A DNA stretch of 64,000 nucleotides, taken from NCBI RefSeq assembly GCF_001659705.1, contig NZ_CP015971.1, positions 2,171,029-2,235,028 of the forward strand. Direction: 5' to 3'. Positions 1,663-28,836 of this stretch are shown piece after piece. Source of the stretch: Arachidicoccus sp. BS20. Its GTDB lineage: Bacteria; Bacteroidota; Bacteroidia; Chitinophagales; Chitinophagaceae. The stretch's first letter is position 1; the number at the start of each line of letters is the position of its first letter. The translations under genes and the position numbers were made by a program. The notes beneath the pieces were generated by a model. The model saw nothing but the letters and a program-made list of their open reading frames with translations, searched no databases and was not told the DNA's origin.

Positions 1663-2541
1663 ATGGAAATTAGAACAGATTTATTTCTTGGCGACAGCAA
1701 AAAGATATTGAAACAACTTCCCGATAATTCTGTTGATTTAATCGTTACTTCTCCGCCTTATGCAGATCAACGCAAAGCAACTTATGGTGGTATTTCACAC
1801 AATAAATATGTTGAGTGGTTTTTACCAATAACAGAAGAGCTATTACGTGTTTTAAAACCAACAGGAACATTTATTTTAAATATAAAAGAAAAAGTTGTTG
1901 ATGGAGAACGTAGCACTTATGTGATGGAATTGATTATTGAAATGCGTAAACAAGGCTGGTTATGGACTGAGGAATTTATATGGCATAAGAAAAATTCTTA
2001 TCCGGGAAAATGGCCTAATCGTTTTCGTGACGCATGGGAAAGATTACTTCAATTCAACAAAGACAAAAAATTCAATATGTATCAAGAAGAAGTAATGGTT
2101 CCAATGGGCGATTGGGCAAAATCAAGATTAAAGAATTTAAGCGATACAGATAAAGTAAGAGATAATTCAAAAGTAGGAAGTGGCTTTGGTAAGAACATTT
2201 CAAATTGGCTAACAAGAGATAAAGCATATCCAACAAATGTTTTGCATTTAGCGACAGAATGTAACAACAAGAATCACAGTGCAGCATTTCCTGAAGAACT
2301 TCCTGAGTGGTTTATTAAATTATTTACAATGGAAAATGACGTGGTGCTTGACCCATTTATGGGCTCAGGAACGACGATTCATGTTGCTAACAGAATGAAA
2401 CGTAATTCAATTGGAATTGATATTGTGCCCGAATATTACAAAATGGTAAAAGAACAAGTAGAGCCTATTGAATTATATTTATTAGAGTCAAAAGTAAAAT
2501 ATGAAACCCCTAAATCTAAAGGACGTTACGCAGTACGTTGA
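1663..2541 (+). CDS. DNA methyltransferase, beta class (motif IV before motif I), probably N4-cytosine or N6-adenine
   Basis: SPPY motif (DLIVTSPPY) lies upstream of the AdoMet-binding motif DPFMGSGTT. The gene sits in a segment noticeably more AT-rich than its neighbours. Confidence 0.8.
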   Translation: MEIRTDLFLGDSKKILKQLPDNSVDLIVTSPPYADQRKATYGGISHNKYVEWFLPITEELLRVLKPTGTFILNIKEKVVDGERSTYVMELIIEMRKQGWLWTEEFIWHKKNSYPGKWPNRFRDAWERLLQFNKDKKFNMYQEEVMVPMGDWAKSRLKNLSDTDKVRDNSKVGSGFGKNISNWLTRDKAYPTNVLHLATECNNKNHSAAFPEELPEWFIKLFTMENDVVLDPFMGSGTTIHVANRMKRNSIGIDIVPEYYKMVKEQVEPIELYLLESKVKYETPKSKGRYAVR

Positions 2542-3238
2542 AGACAATATTGGAACTTTTCATCAAAAAAGAATTGCAGGTTTGAATGGTTTGAGATTAA
2601 AGAAAGTTCTTGCCAAAAAAAATCCTTATTTATTCAAAGCAAAATATATTTTAACTGCTCAAGATATTATTAAAAACTTGACAGACGCTTTTATTTCATC
2701 GCAAGAAGAAACAATCTTTGGAGATTGGTTAGAGGGACTTGCAATATTTATTAACAGTAAAGTTTATAATGGTCGTAAATCGGGCATTCAAGGAATTGAT
2801 TTGGAATTTGATAAAGACAACACCCGTTATATTATTACAATAAAATCTGGTCCAAATTGGGGCAATAGTTCTCAAATTGGAAAAATGAAAGCAGATTTCA
2901 AAACTGCACAAAGAACACTTCGTACAAGCAACTCAAAATTGAACATTGTTGCAGTCAATGGTTGTTGTTATGGCAGAGATAACAGACCCGATAAAGGCGA
3001 TTATTTCAAATATTGCGGACAACATTTTTGGGAATTTATCTCCGGGGACAAAGAATTATATCTAAAAATTATCGAGCCATTAGGACATAAAGCCAAAGAA
3101 AGAAATGATGAGTTCATTCAATCTTATTCTCAAATGATAAATGTATTTACAAAAGAATTTGCGGATACATTTTGTAATGAAAACGGTTCTATAAATTGGA
3201 ATAAACTTGTTTACTTTAATTCTTCAACAACTCGATAA
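2501..3238 (+). CDS. Putative type II restriction endonuclease, cognate to the upstream methyltransferase; family not identified
   Basis: Overlaps the methyltransferase 3' end by 41 nt on the same strand and is similarly AT-rich. No other recognisable domain; the call rests mainly on context. Confidence 0.5.
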   Translation: MKPLNLKDVTQYVEDNIGTFHQKRIAGLNGLRLKKVLAKKNPYLFKAKYILTAQDIIKNLTDAFISSQEETIFGDWLEGLAIFINSKVYNGRKSGIQGIDLEFDKDNTRYIITIKSGPNWGNSSQIGKMKADFKTAQRTLRTSNSKLNIVAVNGCCYGRDNRPDKGDYFKYCGQHFWEFISGDKELYLKIIEPLGHKAKERNDEFIQSYSQMINVFTKEFADTFCNENGSINWNKLVYFNSSTTR

Positions 3239-9286: not shown

Positions 9287-9322
9287 AAAACCCCGTTCAG
9301 CAGTTTTGAACGGGTTTTTTTG
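9287..9322. terminator. Bidirectional rho-independent terminator (CCCGTTCA-GCAGTTT-TGAACGGG) between accC and fusA
   Basis: 8-bp perfect stem flanked by an A-run and a T-run. Confidence 0.6.
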
Positions 9323-9347
9323 TTGAATGCAATTGAACATTTCAATT

Positions 9348-10691
9348 TTACTTCATCTCAAAGCTTTCCATAAATTTAGTAGTAAAGTTTCCCTTACGGA
9401 AATCTTCATTTTGCATCAGTTGCAAATGGAAAGGAATGGTGGTTTTAACGCCGTCGCCTTCAATTACATATTCACTCAACGCACGATACATGGTGTCAAT
9501 TGCTTCTTCGCGCGTGCGCGCAATAGCAATCAGCTTTCCAATCATAGAATCGTAATAAGGCGGAATGGTGTAACCTGCGTAAACATGGCTGTCCACACGC
9601 ACGCCGTGTCCGCCGGGTGTATTCAACGTTCTTATTTTTCCCGGCGAAGGACGGAAATCGTTGTATGGGTCTTCAGCATTAATGCGGCATTCGATAGCGT
9701 GCATGACAGGTGTATAATTTTCGCCTGAAATTTTTTCGCCTGCGGCAATTTTTATCTGTTCTTTAATTAAATCGAAATTAATCACTTCTTCCGTAACGCA
9801 ATGTTCCACCTGAATACGTGTATTCATTTCCATAAAGTAGAAATTGCGGTGCTTATCTACCAGAAACTCAATTGTACCCACGCCTTCGTAGCGAATGCAC
9901 GCCGCAGCTTTTATAGCAGCTTCGCCCATTTTCTTGCGGAGTTCGGGTGTCATAAACGGCGATGGTGATTCTTCCACCAACTTCTGATGACGGCGTTGAA
10001 TGGAACAGTCGCGCTCGCTCATGTGGCAAACCGTTCCGTATTGGTCGCCGGCAACTTGAATTTCTATGTGGCGCGGTTCTTCCACAAATTTTTCCATGTA
10101 GATGCCGTCGTTCTTGAACGCTGCGGCTGCTTCGGCTTTTGCGGTATTGTAATTTTTTTCCAAATCTTCTTCTTTCCACACCACGCGCATACCTTTTCCG
10201 CCGCCACCGGCTGTGGCTTTCAAAATAATTGGATAACCGATTTCTTTTGCCGATTCTTTTGCGTGTTCCAGACTTTGCAACAATCCTTCAACACCGGGAA
10301 CTACCGGCACGCCGGCTTTTATCATCGTGTCTTTGGCGGTTACTTTGTCGCCCATGAGGCTAATCATTTCCGCAGTCGGTCCTATAAATTTGATGCCGTG
10401 GTCTTCGCAAATCTGCGCAAACTTTGCATTTTCTGCCAAGAAGCCATAACCGGGATGAATGGCATCGCAATTGGTAATTTCTGCAGCAGCCATAATGTGC
10501 GGAATGTTAAGATAAGAATCCACGCTTTGCGGCTTGCCGATACAAACGGCTTCGTCGGCAAAGCGCACGTGCAAACTTTCTTTATCGGCGGTGGAATAAA
10601 TGGCTACCGTTTCAATGCCCATTTCACGACAAGTACGAATGATGCGCAATGCAATTTCGCCGCGATTGGCAATTAATATTTTTTTAAACAT
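9348..10691 (-). CDS. accC: Acetyl-CoA carboxylase biotin carboxylase subunit
   Basis: N-terminus [22 protein letters not shown]-grasp motifs and length typical of AccC. Confidence 0.9.
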
Positions 10692-10744
10692 TTTTATCAA
10701 TATGCTAATGTGCCAATTTGCAAATATGCAAATGTGTATGGCAG

Positions 10745-11137
10745 TTAGAAAATAAAAAAACTTAGTAAATAACTTATCGGTAATTTCTTTTTGGAAGTGG
10801 ATACAATTTTCGCAATAATCTTACTTATTTCATCCACCTTGTTTATAAGATTTTTACATTCGGGATATGATTGTGCATAATCACATAGCATTAACCAATA
10901 TTGCGTTTCGTCCGTTTCTTTAGCTGCAATTTTTATTTTGTGTATAAAATCGGCTTTACTTTCAGGATTCTGCGCTTCCATTATATTAGCGCCTATGGAA
11001 GTGCCGGATTTTAATAATTGCCTCGCAATCACATACTTTTTATTTGCCTCTAATTTTTCACAATAATCAATCACGAGCAAAGCAAATTCTATGGAATGCT
11101 TAACTATCGGATTATTTTCAATCAATTCTTTTCGCAT
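10745..11137 (-). CDS. Four-helix-bundle protein (TIGR02436, the so-called 23S rRNA intervening-sequence protein family)
   Basis: 130 aa with a [11 protein letters not shown] core and predicted helical repeats. Paralogous to the ORF at 26000-26350. Confidence 0.75.
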
Positions 11138-11210
11138 ACAGTGATTATTGTACTATGAAACAGAAGAGCAATTTGCACATTTGCATATTAGCTAATTTGC
11201 AAATTTCAAA

Positions 11211-11693
11211 TTAATTCGGCTCTACCAGAAACAAAGGCTGGTCGTATTCTACCGGCGAAGCGTCGTCCACCAACACTTTTACAATTGTTCCGCTTACTTC
11301 GCTTTCTATTTCGTTGAAGAGTTTCATTGCTTCGATGATGCACACGGTTTGTCCCGCTTTTACTTCTTGTCCCACGTCTGCCAGCAAAGGCTTGTCGGGC
11401 GAAGCACGACGATAAAATGTACCAATCATTGGGCTTTTTATCGTTATAAAATTATCGTCTGATTTTGCCGGAGCAGAAGCGGTTGTTGGAGTTGCAGCCG
11501 GCGTTGATGGCAAACTTACTGTTGGCGCTGCCTGCGGCAATTGTTGCGGAAGCGGCTGCGGATTCACAAAAGTCTGAACGTACTCTTTCTTTTGTTTAAT
11601 GGTAATTTTGAAATCCTTTTCTTCGATAGACAATTCGCCGATGTTGCTCTTGTTAATTGTCTTTATCAATTCCTGAATTTGCTTATAATCCAT
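11211..11693 (-). CDS. accB: Biotin carboxyl carrier protein of acetyl-CoA carboxylase
   Basis: C-terminal biotinyl domain with EAMKLFNEIESE and a Pro/Ala-rich linker. Confidence 0.85.
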   Translation of the reverse strand: MDYKQIQELIKTINKSNIGELSIEEKDFKITIKQKKEYVQTFVNPQPLPQQLPQAAPTVSLPSTPAATPTTASAPAKSDDNFITIKSPMIGTFYRRASPDKPLLADVGQEVKAGQTVCIIEAMKLFNEIESEVSGTIVKVLVDDASPVEYDQPLFLVEPN

Positions 11694-11746
11694 TTTGTTG
11701 AATTAATTATTAAATAATTAAAAATTTGAATAGTGGTGTAAGATAA

Positions 11747-11932
11747 TCAATTTTGTTTTTGCTGTAATTCTTTTTGTTCCAATTGCATTTTAAACATCCT
11801 CTCTTTCGATTCCAACCAAGGATTGAAAAACATTATTTTTATCATCGCAAAAACAACATATAAAACAAACAGAATGAGTAATGCAATTACAATATATGTA
11901 AGCAAAGCAATTGAAAAAAAAGAAAAGCCCAT
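11747..11932 (-). CDS. Possible small single-pass membrane protein (61 aa) between efp and accB
   Basis: One long hydrophobic segment followed by a charged, Gln/Lys-rich tail. No homology evidence. Confidence 0.25.
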   Translation of the reverse strand: MGFSFFSIALLTYIVIALLILFVLYVVFAMIKIMFFNPWLESKERMFKMQLEQKELQQKQN

Positions 11933-11957
11933 AGCCTTATTTATTTAAGAATGAAAA

Positions 11958-12524
11958 TTATTCTTTTACTCTTTCCACATAATCGCCTGTCTTCGTATTG
12001 ATGCGAATTAACTCGCCATCGTTCACGAACAAAGGAACATTCACGGTTGCGCCAGTTTCCACAGTTGCGGGTTTTGTTGCGCGCGTTGCCGTATCGCCTT
12101 TCAAACCCGGTTCGCAATAAGTAATTTGCAACACCACTTTTTCGGGAAGTTCTGCACCAATGGGTTGTTCGGTTTCAGTATTGATATAAACAAATATCTC
12201 GCTGCCGTCTTTGAGAAATTGCGGTGCGTCAATCATTTCTTCTGCCAAAGCAATTTGTTCGAAAGTCTCATTATTCATCAGGTTGTAACCTGTTTCATCT
12301 TTATATAAATATTGATAAGTATGCTTTTCCACACGCACAGGAAAAACAGTTTCGCCGCTATTCCATGTTTTTTCAATCGTGCGGTTGTTGTCCACGCCTT
12401 TGAGCTTTGCCCACACTTTTGCCGCAGCGCGGGCTGTTTTATTTTCGCCAAATTCTACTACGGAATACAAATTACCGTCCAGTTTCAAAATCATTCCGCG
12501 ACTGATATCTGATGTTGTTGCCAT
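11958..12524 (-). CDS. efp: Translation elongation factor P
   Basis: MATTSDISRGMILKLDGNLY N-terminus, three-domain length of 188 aa. Confidence 0.9.
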   Translation of the reverse strand: MATTSDISRGMILKLDGNLYSVVEFGENKTARAAAKVWAKLKGVDNNRTIEKTWNSGETVFPVRVEKHTYQYLYKDETGYNLMNNETFEQIALAEEMIDAPQFLKDGSEIFVYINTETEQPIGAELPEKVVLQITYCEPGLKGDTATRATKPATVETGATVNVPLFVNDGELIRINTKTGDYVERVKE

Positions 12525-12846
12525 AAAAAATGCTACTTAAATATTTCGTTTTTTAGTTGATAAGAGCGACAAAAGTAATGATATTTATAAAATACGCGCA
12601 AAAACGGCGGAAATGTTGAGATTTTGCAATAAACCATATAAATACATAGTTTGTATTTTAGAAAAAATCAATGGCGTTGAGTATATAAACAGCTAAGGAA
12701 TCATAGCATTTTCATCTTCGATGAAAATTTCTTTGTGAAACTATCTTTGTCTTTCAGCTATGTAAAATCAATTTTTCTATGTGGTTTAATTTTTGCTTTT
12801 AAATTTAGTTTTTATTCAATAAAATTTCTGAAATAAAAATCTACTT

Positions 12847-24730: not shown

Positions 24731-25957
24731 TTATTCATTTCCTTTCAAAGAAAAATCTTTTACTGCCGCCTTTCGTGCTGGAATCCACGAAGCCAAAACA
24801 GCAACGATAAATATAGTCGCCGTTACCATCAGAAAGTCTGCAATACGCATAGTTACCGGATAATAATCTACAACAAACGAACCGCCTTCGAGTTTTATGA
24901 GATGATATTTTTGCTGCGCGTAACAAATTAAAAATGCAATCAACATTCCTGCAATGCCGCCGATTCCAGCTAATAAAAAGCCTTCATTCAAAAATATTTT
25001 TTGTATAAAACCATTGTGCGCGCCCAACGCCTTCAGCACAGCAATATCTTTTCGTTTTTCCAAAATCAACATCGTTAATGCGCCCACCATATTGAACGCT
25101 GCAATCACTAAAATGATGGAAAGAATAATGTAGATAATCCATTTTTCCATTTGCATCACGCTGAACAAACTTTGATTCTGTTGAAAGCGTGTCTGCACTT
25201 TATAATGCTGACCAAATATTGATGCCACCTGCTTTTGCGCACCTGAAACATTCTCTTCCGAATTTATTTTTATATCAATCGCCGTATAACTATTTTCGGG
25301 AATATCTGCCATATATCTTACAAAACCGATATTGGTAAAAGCATATTTATTATCAAAATCTTCCTGTATTCTAAAAATACCTGCTTCGTGAATATCGAAC
25401 GAATAAGTGGCATTTTGAAGATTGGAAAAATCATTAGCATTTCTGTTTGGGAAAAAAACCGTCAAAGGGTCTGTGGACAAAGGGTCTGCGCCAATGGCGT
25501 TGGCAATGCCGCCGCCAAGAACAACGGATGGAGAATCTTTAGTTCCTAAACTATATTCGCCGTTATCGATAATATTTTTCTTTATGGAAACAACTTCATA
25601 GTAATTGCTATCCACGCCCTTGAGATAAACAATGGACTGGTAATCGCCATTTACCACCAGCGCTTTTTCTTCAACAGTCAAACTGAAATTTTTTACAGAC
25701 TTTATTTGATGCAACTGTTTCAGCTGAGACGCCGTTGGTTGAATATACTTCCCTTGCGTTGCAGACACGCGCAAATCAGAATAAAAATCGCCGTACATGG
25801 ATTTAACCAATCCTTCAAAACCATTGAAAACACTAAGCACGAGAATGAGCGCCGCCGAACCAACCGCAATGGCAACAATGCTTATCCACGAAATAATGTT
25901 GATGACATTCGTGGATTTTTTTGCTTTAAAATATCGCCATGCGAAGAGGAAGTTCAT
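24731..25957 (-). CDS. Lipoprotein-release ABC transporter permease (LolC/LolE, FtsX-like)
   Basis: N-terminal TM, large periplasmic domain and a C-terminal FtsX 3-TM bundle. Confidence 0.75.
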   Translation of the reverse strand: MNFLFAWRYFKAKKSTNVINIISWISIVAIAVGSAALILVLSVFNGFEGLVKSMYGDFYSDLRVSATQGKYIQPTASQLKQLHQIKSVKNFSLTVEEKALVVNGDYQSIVYLKGVDSNYYEVVSIKKNIIDNGEYSLGTKDSPSVVLGGGIANAIGADPLSTDPLTVFFPNRNANDFSNLQNATYSFDIHEAGIFRIQEDFDNKYAFTNIGFVRYMADIPENSYTAIDIKINSEENVSGAQKQVASIFGQHYKVQTRFQQNQSLFSVMQMEKWIIYIILSIILVIAAFNMVGALTMLILEKRKDIAVLKALGAHNGFIQKIFLNEGFLLAGIGGIAGMLIAFLICYAQQKYHLIKLEGGSFVVDYYPVTMRIADFLMVTATIFIVAVLASWIPARKAAVKDFSLKGNE

Positions 25958-25969
25958 GCAGTAATTAAG

Positions 25970-25995
25970 AATTAGTAATTAAAAATTAATAATTG
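25970..25995. repeat. Left arm of a perfect 26-bp inverted repeat (AATTAGTAATTAAAAATTAATAATTG) flanking the four-helix-bundle gene
   Basis: Exact reverse-complement match to 26348-26373. Confidence 0.9.
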
Positions 25996-25999
25996 TGGG

Positions 26000-26350
26000 T
26001 TATCCTTTTGAAGAGTTAATAATTGAGGTAAGGATTTTTATAATTTCTTCACAATCATTGATAAAAGAATCTGCAATTTTTTCTTCTATAAATTTAGTTT
26101 CTTTCAGAATTCTCAACCAATATCGGGTTTCACGCGCTTCTCTGTATGCTATTTCGAGTTTGTGTATAAAATCTTTTCTTGAAGAACCGCCAACAGCTTC
26201 TTCAACATTAGCTCCGACAGAAGTTCCGCTTTTTAATAATTGAACACATAATTCTCTTTCAACTTTGTTTTTTCGCAAATGCAAGAAGAGCTTGGTTATT
26301 CTCAATGCAAATAGAAAACTTTTATCCAATATAATATTATCGTCCTTCAA
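26000..26350 (-). CDS. Four-helix-bundle protein (TIGR02436, 23S rRNA intervening-sequence protein family), second copy
   Basis: 116 aa with GTSVGANVEEA core and ETRYWL motif. Paralogous to 10745-11137. Confidence 0.75.
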   Translation of the reverse strand: MKDDNIILDKSFLFALRITKLFLHLRKNKVERELCVQLLKSGTSVGANVEEAVGGSSRKDFIHKLEIAYREARETRYWLRILKETKFIEEKIADSFINDCEEIIKILTSIINSSKG

Positions 26351-26373
26351 TTATTAATTTTTAATTACTAATT
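26348..26373. repeat. Right arm of the perfect 26-bp inverted repeat (CAATTATTAATTTTTAATTACTAATT)
   Basis: Exact reverse complement of 25970-25995. Confidence 0.9.
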
Positions 26374-26379
26374 ATTAAT

Positions 26380-26742
26380 TCACTTATTCGACTCCTCATT
26401 AATTTTTTTAAACAATTCTTCCATATGAAAAACGTGTTCCAGCGTATCATCGGCATAATAATGAATCACGGGAATGCGGCGCAACTGGTTTTTCAATTTA
26501 TGCGACAATTCTTTTTTTATTTCCCAGGCTTTTTGTTCAATTGATTTTAATGCCGCAGCATTGTCTTGCACCTGAAAGAAACTCAGGTAAATACGCACTT
26601 CCAGCAAATCGGGCGTAACCTGCACATCGCTGATGGAAACCATGCCGCCGCCAATCATGTTCAAACCAAGATGACGAAAGATTTGGTTAATCTCTTCTTT
26701 AATCACGTTGGCAACCTGCCGCTGTCTTTTTCCCTGTTCCAT
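26380..26742 (-). CDS. rbfA: Ribosome-binding factor A
   Basis: RQVANVIKEEINQI motif and KH-like fold, 120 aa. Confidence 0.8.
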   Translation of the reverse strand: MEQGKRQRQVANVIKEEINQIFRHLGLNMIGGGMVSISDVQVTPDLLEVRIYLSFFQVQDNAAALKSIEQKAWEIKKELSHKLKNQLRRIPVIHYYADDTLEHVFHMEELFKKINEESNK

Positions 26743-26804: not shown

Positions 26805-28613
26805 ATGAAGAAATTTCAACGCATATTCACGTATCTCGGGCATTACAAATCCAAGCTGTTCAGCTATACATTATTTACGGTTTTAGGAACATTGTTCGGC
26901 ATTTTATCAATCGGAATGTTGTCGCCGTTTCTTACCTTGATTATCGGCGATGAAAAAAATTCTTCTGCTAATTTGTTGCAGTCAAAATCAAGCGGAAAAT
27001 TTATCCTTAATTTTCTGAACAGCGAAGTACAGCAACACGGCAAACTCGCTGCTATTGCTGCGGTTTGTATAATTATTATTGTATCCACCTTGCTGAAAAA
27101 TATTTTTATTTATTTATCGGCTGTTATTTCTGCGCCTGTCCGAAGTTCCATTATCAAAAGGCTGCGCGATGAAATGTATGTAAAAGCTCTGCAACTCCCC
27201 ATCGGATTTTTTACCGAGCAGAAAAAAGGCGATGTAATGTCGCGTATGACAAATGATATTAATGAAGTGGACAGTTCAATTGTAAGCACGCTGGAAGGCT
27301 TAATCAAAGATCCGTTCACAATAGTCGGTTATTTGATTGCGATGATTTTGATTAGCCCGGCATTGTCCATTGGTTTATTAATTCTTTTGCCATTGACAGG
27401 TTTTGTTATCGGTCGTGTAAGTCGTTTATTAAAGAAACAATCCAAAGCCATGAGCGAGCGACAAAGTGTTGCGCTCTCTATTTTGGACGAAACGCTTACG
27501 GGAATAAGAGTTGTAAAGGCTTTTCTGGCGGAAAAAATGATGCACAAAAAATTTGACGCCGTGAATGAAGATATGTTTGTGCTGCGCAATAAAATGTCGT
27601 ATCGCCGCAATCTGGCTTCGCCTTTGACGGAAGTATTGGGCGTAACAGTGCTTGCGGCAATTTTGTATTTCGGCGGCATGTTGGTGGTAAAATATCAATT
27701 GATGAAAGGCGGCGATTTGCTGGCATATATCGGCATGTTTGCTTTCATTATTAATCCTGCGAAAACTTTGTCCACATCATTTTTCAACATTCAGCGCGGA
27801 AGCTCTGCGCTCACGCGAATTGAAGATTTTCTGGCTACGCCCGAAGTGATTGAAGACGGAGGAACGAATGAATTAAGTTTTGAAAGAGAAATACAGTTTA
27901 AAAATGTATTTTTTAGTTATCCAGACGGGACTGCCGTTTTAAAGAATATTAACCTTACTATTCCTAAAGGCAAAACCGTGGCGCTTGTAGGCAGCAGCGG
28001 CGCAGGAAAAAGTACGATTGCCGATTTGGTTCCGCGCTTTCACGACGTGAGTTCGGGCGAGTTGCTGATTGATGGAATCAACGTTAAAAATTATTCGCTC
28101 AAATCTTTGCGCGAGCATATCAGCATTGTAACACAGGAACCGATTTTGTTTAATGATTCTATTGCAAGCAATATTGCTTTGGGAAAAAATGATGCAAGCG
28201 AACAGCAAATTGAAGACGCGGCAAAGGTTGCCAATGCGTTTAATTTTATCCAACAGAAAGAAGAAAAATTTGACACCAACATTGGCGACAGAGGCAATAA
28301 ATTAAGCGGCGGCGAAAAACAACGTGTAACCATTGCGCGCGCCGTTTTAAAAAATCCACCGATACTGATTTTGGATGAAGCCACTTCTTCGCTCGACACG
28401 GAAAGTGAAAGATTGGTACAGGATGCGATTGATAAAATGATGGAAAACCGCACTTCATTAGTAATTGCCCACAGACTCTCAACTGTGCGAAATGCTGATG
28501 AAATCATTGTTTTGGATAAAGGCGAAATTGCCGAACGCGGCTCCCACGATGAATTGCTGAAAATAGAAAATGGTATTTACAGTAGATTGGTTAGAATGCA
28601 GGAAGTGAAATAG
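26805..28613 (+). CDS. ABC transporter, fused permease/ATPase (MsbA-like lipid/multidrug exporter)
   Basis: Six N-terminal TM segments, Walker A GSSGAGKST, signature LSGGEKQR and Walker B ILILDEATS. Confidence 0.85.
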   Translation: MKKFQRIFTYLGHYKSKLFSYTLFTVLGTLFGILSIGMLSPFLTLIIGDEKNSSANLLQSKSSGKFILNFLNSEVQQHGKLAAIAAVCIIIIVSTLLKNIFIYLSAVISAPVRSSIIKRLRDEMYVKALQLPIGFFTEQKKGDVMSRMTNDINEVDSSIVSTLEGLIKDPFTIVGYLIAMILISPALSIGLLILLPLTGFVIGRVSRLLKKQSKAMSERQSVALSILDETLTGIRVVKAFLAEKMMHKKFDAVNEDMFVLRNKMSYRRNLASPLTEVLGVTVLAAILYFGGMLVVKYQLMKGGDLLAYIGMFAFIINPAKTLSTSFFNIQRGSSALTRIEDFLATPEVIEDGGTNELSFEREIQFKNVFFSYPDGTAVLKNINLTIPKGKTVALVGSSGAGKSTIADLVPRFHDVSSGELLIDGINVKNYSLKSLREHISIVTQEPILFNDSIASNIALGKNDASEQQIEDAAKVANAFNFIQQKEEKFDTNIGDRGNKLSGGEKQRVTIARAVLKNPPILILDEATSSLDTESERLVQDAIDKMMENRTSLVIAHRLSTVRNADEIIVLDKGEIAERGSHDELLKIENGIYSRLVRMQEVK

Positions 28614-28625
28614 ACGGTTTTATTT

Positions 28626-28705
28626 GAACCACAAAGGCACAACGGCACGAAGGGACACAAAGAATAATTCGGAACACGCTTGCACGTCATTGCGAGGAGC
28701 GAGGT
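28626..28705 (+). repeat. Roughly 80-bp intergenic element sharing blocks ACCACAA..GGGACACAAAGAA..TTGCACGT(C/T)ATTGC with an inverted copy at 4512-4590
   Basis: Aligned by eye against the reverse complement of 4512-4590. Confidence 0.5.
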
Positions 28706-28836
28706 ACGAGCGACGTGGCAATCTCAATAAAAATATGCGTTCCTTTACTCCAAAAACAATTGAAACAATAAGACAATTAAACAATCCAACACATTCGTAT
28801 AATTTCTCTAAATTCGTGTAATCAAAAAATAATTTT

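Follow-up and report, generated by a model that had tools for sequence, protein, structure and literature searches.

Proteins of the four-helix-bundle family PF05635/TIGR02436 form a very large group (16,983 clusters at 50% identity with E ≤ 1e-3) with no assigned function, and their earlier ties are to the intervening sequences (IVSs) of rRNA and, distantly, to Avd. The closest precedent for the locus described here is the 23S rRNA IVS with an S23p ORF, found in Coxiella burnetii, Leptospira and elements of the Xanthomonas type (PMC4990558). In Coxiella, the S23p (PF05635) ORF lies in an IVS with a 28-bp terminal stem that is cut by RNase III, and tandem heptamers in variable number are located upstream of the ORF (PMC4990558). 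The S23p protein of Xanthomonas is described as a homopentameric toroid (PMC4990558). Between accB and accC of Arachidicoccus sp. BS20, in the 64-kb stretch of DNA analyzed here (hereafter, the window), we found a cassette that shares with these IVSs a protein of the same family in the loop, terminal inverted sequences able to close the element in a long stem (here, 30-nt arms that are 87% complementary), short tandem repeats of variable copy number adjoining the ORF (the heptamers in Coxiella), a location inside a highly transcribed host RNA with no obvious promoter of its own, the existence of short ORF-less versions, and a sporadic phylogenetic distribution. However, IVSs are inserted in helix 25 or 45 of the 23S rRNA, whereas the cassette occupies the spacer of a protein-coding operon and, being located outside rRNA, is not a 23S IVS. 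Both of its arms consist wholly of periodic 8-nt units abutting a stop and a start codon; its ORF is under strong purifying selection, while that of Coxiella is decaying and apparently untranslated; and excision by RNase III, demonstrated for the IVSs, is putative for the cassette.

Another relative is the Avd protein of diversity-generating retroelements, which is homologous to PF05635 (PMC10053308). Avd and the cassette protein are related by a homologous four-helix-bundle fold, of a kind that forms pentamers. In contrast to Avd modules, the cassettes have housekeeping genes as neighbors (efp, accB and accC, or rbfA and a lolE-like gene). Neither a reverse transcriptase nor a template/variable repeat pair was detected beside the two copies in the window, nor was a reverse transcriptase present among the called genes of related loci; hence, the cassette is not a module of this type. 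Avd binds nucleic acid and, to our knowledge, it is only for this distant branch of the four-helix-bundle relatives that RNA or DNA binding is known.

Short structured repeats in operon spacers are also characteristic of REP/BIME sequences, REPtrons (a RAYT gene with inverted REPs) and MITEs. REPtrons resemble the cassette in having a gene between inverted repeat copies together with gene-less dispersed copies, and in the roles proposed for them in mRNA stability or translation. However, the cassette protein is not a Y1 transposase, and REPs are single palindromes of 20 to 40 nt rather than tandem arrays of 7- to 8-nt units. A transposon-like presence/absence polymorphism does exist: the rbfA-lolE spacer has a cassette in the window but not in A. 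soli or A. terrestris, and the accB-accC spacers of Chitinophagaceae are filled, hairpin-only or empty. Nevertheless, the search for a transposon or MITE signature found no target-site duplication, near-identical copies or recombinase gene, and the first two of these absences set the cassette apart from classical transposons and MITEs. Finally, intergenic tandem repeats of the heptamer TAACTGA have been described in Beggiatoaceae, Cyanobacteria and a few Bacteroidetes (PMC4679880). Like the cassette arrays, they are tandem 7-nt units (2 to 6 copies) located shortly before start codons, at a distance of a few nucleotides, with a suspected posttranscriptional role and a sporadic distribution, but they are direct and one-sided, differ in sequence and are not known to be linked to PF05635 genes or to an inverted partner array. 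We found no description of inverted 8-nt arrays around PF05635 genes in the searchable literature or in Rfam, the nearest reports to this design being the Coxiella heptamers and the one-sided repeats of Beggiatoaceae.

We propose, with a probability of roughly 60%, that the locus is one of a large family of hairpin cassettes of Bacteroidota whose arrays pair on the mRNA and move with the ORF. The comparisons below document the anatomy of the cassette, its generality, its anchoring to stop and start codons, the selection acting on its ORF and its presence/absence polymorphism; the pairing of the arrays, cleavage by RNase III and translational coupling on the operon transcript are what we infer from them. 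In Bacteroidota, PF05635 genes come in a stereotyped package of periodic inverted arrays that fills the spacer exactly, from the stop codon of one gene to the start codon of the next, the two genes encoding subunits of one enzyme complex, and this package gives the family a testable context. It also connects the puzzle of the rRNA IVSs with protein-coding operons, and points to a possible translational-coupling or mRNA-processing device in a phylum without Shine-Dalgarno-based coupling.

The four-helix-bundle gene between accB and accC

The genes of the locus are all encoded on the minus strand, in the order efp (11958-12524), a 61-aa ORF, accB (11211-11693), a 130-aa ORF (10745-11137) and accC (9348-10691). 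The upstream host gene accB, coding for the biotin carboxyl carrier protein, was identified by its ORF, its biotin/lipoyl domain (PF00364 Biotin_lipoyl, E=2.4e-21) and the efp-accB-accC synteny of relatives, and the downstream host gene accC, coding for biotin carboxylase, by its ORF, 87% identical to accC of Chitinophagaceae. We placed the start of accC at the ATG at 10691, although the longest ORF reaches a TTG at 10700. The 61-aa product (11747-11932, minus strand), encoded between efp and accB, is small and hydrophobic and has no Pfam match; a small ORF of 54 to 69 aa was called repeatedly at this place in relatives (L081 to L085, at about 2267-2485).

The sequence-only reading had placed a 130-aa four-helix-bundle gene between accB and accC on the same strand, as borne out here by the ORF and its matches to PF05635 (E=5e-23; 81.8 bits against a curated cut-off of 33.8) and TIGR02436 (E=2.6e-26; 91.9 bits, cut-off 24). 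The protein is identical to an NCBI entry named [quoted passage not shown] and is a bona fide member of PF05635. By homology to PDB 2RLD, matched by the family profile over residues 1 to 117 (E=9.5e-35), it is predicted to adopt a four-helix-bundle fold. The proteins of the accB-accC type end in a conserved hydrophobic C-terminal tail, K-K-x-P-x-S-Y-x-x-S-F-F-x-F (10745-10789 in the window), and there is a second subfamily of four-helix-bundle proteins without it. None of the PADLOC or PHROGs families matched at E ≤ 0.01, which gives no assignment to defense or phage functions.

Inverted tandem arrays at both flanks

The gene is separated from its neighbors by flanks of 44 nt (10701-10744) and 73 nt (11138-11210) that had been described as related by inverted symmetry and as having blocks in common, and both the lengths and the blocks were found as claimed. 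The block AATTTGCAAAT is present at 10715 and 11194 and has exactly these two occurrences in the window, while ATGCAAATGTG, at 10726, has its reverse complement at 11176, each being found once. An inverted-repeat search detected arms at 10707-10736 and 11176-11205 (30 nt, 87% complementary), along with several further registers offset by 8 nt, and Tandem Repeats Finder assigned a period of 8 to both 10699-10733 (4.4 copies) and 11170-11212 (5.5 copies).

Read along the transcript, the 5' arm (11170-11212, minus strand) is supported by both programs and consists of about 5.5 tandem 8-nt units, with the coding-strand sequence AATTAATTTG AAATTTGC AAATTAGC TAATATGC AAATGTGC AAATTGC; its first unit is overlapped by the TAA stop codon of accB (11211-11213). 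It is followed by a G-poor leader of about 32 nt (11138-11169, minus strand), not conserved in sequence among orthologues, that leads to the ATG of the four-helix-bundle gene. The 3' arm (10699-10741, minus strand), which the minimum free energy (MFE) fold pairs with the 5' arm, has about five 8-nt units of the 5' kind in reverse complement (ACACATTTGC ATATTTGC AAATTGGC ACATTAGC ATATTG on the coding strand) and ends 7 nt upstream of the accC ATG. The unit can be written roughly as RATnWGnn on the 5' side and as its reverse complement on the 3' side. Consequently, the flanks are not a perfect inverted repeat in decay, as the sequence-only reading had it, but inverted tandem arrays of variant 8-nt units whose pattern is conserved throughout the family. 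The indel of about 8 bp that it noted between the arms corresponds to a difference of one repeat unit (TAGCTAAT).

The duplex formed by the two 80-nt flanks has a dG of -32.2 (z=-2.55), and 2 of 100 dinucleotide shuffles were as good. Pairing at this single locus is thus just moderately unusual, and it is its recurrence across the family that makes a chance origin untenable. In the MFE folds of both window cassettes the ORF is closed in a terminal stem made by the two arrays, with whole-cassette energies marginally better than those of shuffled sequences (z=-1.41 and -2.37).

We also considered the arrays as promoters or terminators and rejected this possibility: a scan of 9300-12700 for sigma-70 promoters and intrinsic terminators gave counts not above those of shuffles, with none in the arrays. 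The Bacteroides promoter consensus is TTTG, 19 to 21 nt, TAnnTTTG; with TTTG recurring at 8-nt intervals, the available spacings are 16 or 24 nt and thus out of phase with it, and hence the arrays are not read as promoters. Rfam models had no matches in the window at gathering thresholds, rRNA included, nor over the accB-accC spacers of six relatives at E ≤ 1.

Distribution and age of the accB-accC copy

The accB-accC junction was compared in Bacteroidota genomes and, in 76 of 79 cases, the two genes are separated by a gene-less spacer of 16 to 173 nt. One junction, from a Niabella, has a four-helix-bundle gene (59% identical). The enlarged gaps of two other loci (L062, 3456-3956; L076, 3480-3995) are not cassettes, and contain an unrelated gene coding for a putative lipoprotein of 166 to 171 aa (signal peptide with Cys). 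More than 100 distinct 130-aa proteins at 69 to 79% identity to that of the window were found in databases, and the efp-accB-4HB-accC synteny (4HB, four-helix bundle) is present in the three orthologues that were looked up and in the first eleven metagenome loci. In all the loci of this type that we examined, the accB stop codon is followed by an array of 8-nt AATnTGCn-type units and accC is preceded by their reverse complement, with different numbers of units.

Orthologues with 59 to 79% identity thus retain the synteny, and in seven of them pS is saturated (0.67 to 0.90) with a pN of 0.10 to 0.26 and a dN/dS below 0.2. The combination of synonymous saturation and low pN indicates that the gene is old at this junction and under purifying selection. 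The idea that this copy is the older of the two in the window is upheld, its orthologues being in place at 59 to 79% identity while the second copy is absent from congeners. On the other hand, the term degenerate that had accompanied it does not suit an ORF with these pN and pS values.

In an accC tree of Chitinophagaceae, filled, hairpin-only and empty junctions are interleaved; built by neighbor joining with no support values, the tree shows patchiness rather than the order of gains and losses. The comparison across relatives therefore did not recover a family-wide fixed arrangement without flank symmetry: the arrangement is widespread but patchy in Chitinophagaceae and the symmetry persists in all further members that were examined, which favors a cassette. 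Judging from the comparison, the accB-accC copy is ancient and appears to have been lost repeatedly, at times leaving behind a gene-less array hairpin.

These data also bear on whether we are dealing with an ordinary small gene, fixed long ago in the accBC operon, with flanks whose symmetry is a fortuitous product of low-complexity sequence. The synteny conserved in several lineages of Chitinophagaceae, the purifying selection on the ORF and the z-score of just -2.55 for the window flanks taken alone would agree with such a gene. Yet 76 of the 79 junctions lack an inserted gene, the distribution is patchy even within Chitinophagaceae, PF05635 genes of operons unrelated to this one have flanks built in the same way, and mono-shuffled controls of 677 kb contain no array of at least 4 units (see below). 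We regard this explanation as highly improbable, and in our judgment the family-wide analysis refutes it.

Three metagenome-assembled genome (MAG) records titled Bosea thiooxidans, Bifidobacteriaceae and Candidatus Nitrotoga (L009, L039 and L070) carry an accC of the Bacteroidota type (73 to 87% identity), and these bins are probably mislabeled or contaminated.

A second copy between rbfA and lolE

As the sequence-only reading had stated, a second copy with the same architecture is found between operon genes of the window. Its ORF (26000-26350, minus strand) codes for a 116-aa protein with matches to PF05635 and TIGR02436 of 91.3 and 105.5 bits, respectively, a paralogue with 41% protein identity to the 130-aa protein; like the latter, it is identical to an NCBI entry of A. 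ginsenosidimutans. Searches by tblastn and with the family HMM found no copies in the window beyond these two. The 5' arm (26348-26380, minus strand), made of the 7-nt units TAATAAT TAGTAAT TAAAAAT TAATAAT, begins at the rbfA stop codon and includes the TTG start of the ORF. The 3' arm (25960-25995, minus strand), in which Tandem Repeats Finder detected the reverse-complement 7-nt units, stops 2 nt short of the ATG in the downstream neighbor, an FtsX/LolE-like gene (24731-25957). The paired segments, 25963-25995 and 26348-26380, are 33 nt long and 97% complementary, and the MFE fold closes the ORF with a stem of more than 30 bp.

The corresponding spacers are short and free of arrays in both A. 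soli (40 nt) and A. terrestris (73 nt). Comparison of filled and empty versions indicates that the cassette took the place of the whole spacer, everything between the stop and the start codon, and that no target-site duplication arose. Proteins 72 to 83% identical to that of the second copy are encoded after parE (between parE and a DUF1835 gene) in Ferruginibacter, Puia, a Flavobacterium MAG and others, and these relatives carry the same 7-nt arrays. Since the nearest protein relatives are located in another operon with the same arrays, the cassette moves together with its arrays, and the type of array follows the protein subfamily rather than the locus. From these sequence comparisons, the second copy is a recent insertion, specific to this lineage, that came with its own arrays.

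In the nearest relative available (Logan contig L181, with an rbfA 91% identical), the rbfA-lolE spacer holds instead a 79-aa VapB-like ORF and a 130-aa PIN-domain gene (2401-3011), a pair that looks like a VapBC-type toxin-antitoxin system; different small selfish modules thus seem able to occupy this spacer. In the Flavobacterium MAG (L093, 2329-3818) there are two full 116-aa four-helix-bundle genes in tandem after parE, as well as several truncated copies limited to about 100 nt from the start of the ORF, each with its own 7-nt array in front, a layout that suggests array-mediated duplication or nested insertion.

The mobility of the cassette could also be explained at the DNA level, the arrays being multi-site targets (as in subterminal repeats or REP/BIME) for a recombinase or single-strand transposase acting in trans, with the RNA stem as an incidental product. 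The joint movement of arrays and ORF from one locus to another and the polymorphism of insertion inside the genus agree with this explanation, as do the conservation of unit motif and polarity across the family and the lack of a bias of G·U over A·C in the arms (see below). A Y1_Tnp gene (PF01797, IS200/RAYT-like) is found two genes downstream of the parE-linked cassette in L099 (3048-3470) and L100 (3845-4267), and it could be a trans-acting factor for the hairpin repeats or a coincidence. However, most cassettes have no recombinase gene in or beside them, no target-site duplication accompanies the replacement of the entire spacer from stop to start codon, and near-identical copies are missing, the two in the window having different units and 41% protein identity. 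Neither the strict anchoring to stop and start codons nor the co-orientation with the operon is predicted by a DNA element of this kind, and the accB-accC copy stayed in place while its synonymous sites became saturated. We consider a DNA-level element unlikely.

Gene-less array hairpins

Several of the gene-less accB-accC spacers consist of similar inverted arrays separated by a short loop. The hairpin of Niastella populi, for instance, has hb1-type units and a stem of about 29 bp (dG -45.8, z=-5.9), and others with various unit variants were found in other Chitinophagaceae, in Pedobacter and in many Flavobacterium spacers. The presence of these hairpins in the accB-accC spacer of many Bacteroidota indicates that hairpin and ORF are separable; under the DNA-level explanation, the array pairs without a gene might represent non-autonomous derivatives. 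A total of 13 strict arrays (those with at least 4 in-phase units) were detected in 677 kb of sequence from Bacteroidota, centered on accC; 12 of them are located inside the accB-accC spacer, and the mono-shuffled controls of the same sequence gave zero arrays of at least 4 units. The remaining one (L020, 7393-7422) is the sole strict 8-nt array outside these spacers in 80 genome loci; it reads TAATTTGAAAATTTGATAATTGGG and is followed by a GC-rich hairpin.

Architecture across the family

A metagenome scan seeded with both four-helix-bundle subfamilies recovered 80 loci at 44 to 75% identity, bringing the scorable set to 86 with the other loci added. Arms cannot be aligned column by column because the number of units changes, and we used duplex energies, cross-locus pairing and permutation of unit variants instead. 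Among the 86 loci, the 80-nt flank duplexes had a median z of -3.0 against dinucleotide shuffles, with 69% of loci below -2, and in 58% of loci the own flank pair outperformed 27 or more of 30 cross-locus pairs. Significant pairing within 80 nt was missing from about 30% of loci, some of them with arrays located further out or with mis-set ORF ends. The two arms of a locus share unit variants more than arms of different loci do, with 3.74 matches at 5 variable positions versus 2.67, a value reached by none of 5000 permutations.

Tandem Repeats Finder gave a period of 8 or 16 for 57 of 71 upstream and 59 of 73 downstream arrays. The upstream consensus is R-A-T-(T/G/A)-(T/A)-G-(A/C)-(A/T), and the downstream one is its complement. 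Three positions stand out (of 92 consensus units, 91 have A2, all 92 have T3 and 84 have G6), fractions that are overstated because the phase of the unit was chosen to maximize them. Polarity is fixed, and arrays range from 2 to 10 units with a modal length of 4 to 5 in phase. The median start of the 5' array is -2 nt relative to the end of the upstream stop codon, an overlap that may be in part a product of the method, since stop codons were searched near or inside arrays that are themselves rich in stop triplets. A median of 7 nt separates the end of the 3' array from the downstream ATG. Distances to the four-helix-bundle ORF are loose (medians of 24 nt on the 5' side, with values of up to 166, and 15 nt on the other); hence, the arrays are anchored to the stop and start codons of the host genes and not to the ORF between them.

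According to a crude ORF call, 68 of 79 scorable loci have the cassette co-oriented with both neighbors. Inspection by eye revealed recurrent contexts that are mostly pairs of subunit genes, including accB-accC, scoA-scoB, sdhA-sdhB, sufB-sufC, crt-hbd and parE-DUF1835...parC. With rbfA-lolE added, they support the proposal of a dispersed cassette family in the tight spacers of housekeeping operons. A published gene table of Flavobacterium columnare also includes one four-helix-bundle gene between gmk and nadD (PMC5524665).

The type of unit tracks the protein subfamily, the hb1 type being accompanied by AATnTGCn and the hb2 type by the 7-nt TAATnAT. This regularity invites a comparison with TRAP, in which the arrays would be binding sites for a ring-shaped four-helix-bundle protein, one 8-nt unit per subunit, that would regulate its own expression or gate downstream translation by competing with the stem. 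A periodic motif with three well-conserved positions, the modal 4 to 5 in-phase units, the pentameric homologues (2RLD has 5 chains, and S23p of Xanthomonas is described as a homopentamer [PMC4990558]) and the match of unit type to subfamily all speak for such a ring. Nonetheless, the covariation of unit and subfamily is equally expected from simple co-inheritance, the arrays vary in length from 2 to 10 units, and arrays persist in accB-accC spacers from which the four-helix-bundle gene is missing. A TRAP-like function for the arrays seems to us rather doubtful.

How the cassette could work

In the hairpin-cassette model that we favor, a PF05635 ORF between inverted tandem arrays (usually of 8-nt units, sometimes of 7-nt units) would replace the whole spacer of two co-oriented operon genes. 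On the polycistronic mRNA the arrays would form an imperfect A/U-rich helix of about 30 to 40 bp, looping out the four-helix-bundle ORF and bringing the accB stop codon beside the accC start, and this helix would be what makes the insertion tolerable. It might act as a substrate for RNase III, as in the 23S rRNA IVSs that carry S23p. Alternatively, it might couple the initiation of accC to the termination of accB, since the base of the stem would be melted by a ribosome terminating on accB, leaving the region in front of accC accessible. The ORF is presumably translated into a protein that is selected, probably nucleic-acid-binding and Avd-like.

The mismatches in the arms are a difficulty for a model based purely on an RNA stem. 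Positions other than Watson-Crick pairs comprise 32 G·U and 39 A·C, and the majority of the mismatches are transversions that distinguish one unit variant from another; selection for a stem on the sense RNA should have left an excess of G·U, so its absence lends no support to such a model and counts against it. Moreover, a stem explains neither the periodicity of the units nor the conservation of their pattern across divergent loci, which points to an additional, sequence-specific reader of the arrays, either a protein (possibly the pentameric four-helix-bundle protein itself) or a DNA-level process. A more speculative version, to which we give little credence, would make the arrays and the ring-shaped protein a self-contained mobile module of posttranscriptional control, suited to bacteria without Shine-Dalgarno sequences. 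In it, the stem would tie downstream translation to upstream termination, a pentamer would read about five 8-nt units in the manner of TRAP to open or lock the stem, and the 23S IVSs and the operon cassettes would be two habitats of one type of element that colonizes the hairpins of highly expressed RNAs.

Other period-8 arrays in the window

Two more arrays with a period of 8 are present in the window, CACAAAGG in 3.5 copies at 28630-28657 and AAACAATT in 3.9 copies at 28754-28785. They are not mutually complementary and enclose no four-helix-bundle gene; both are intergenic, after an ABC-transporter gene that ends at 28613.
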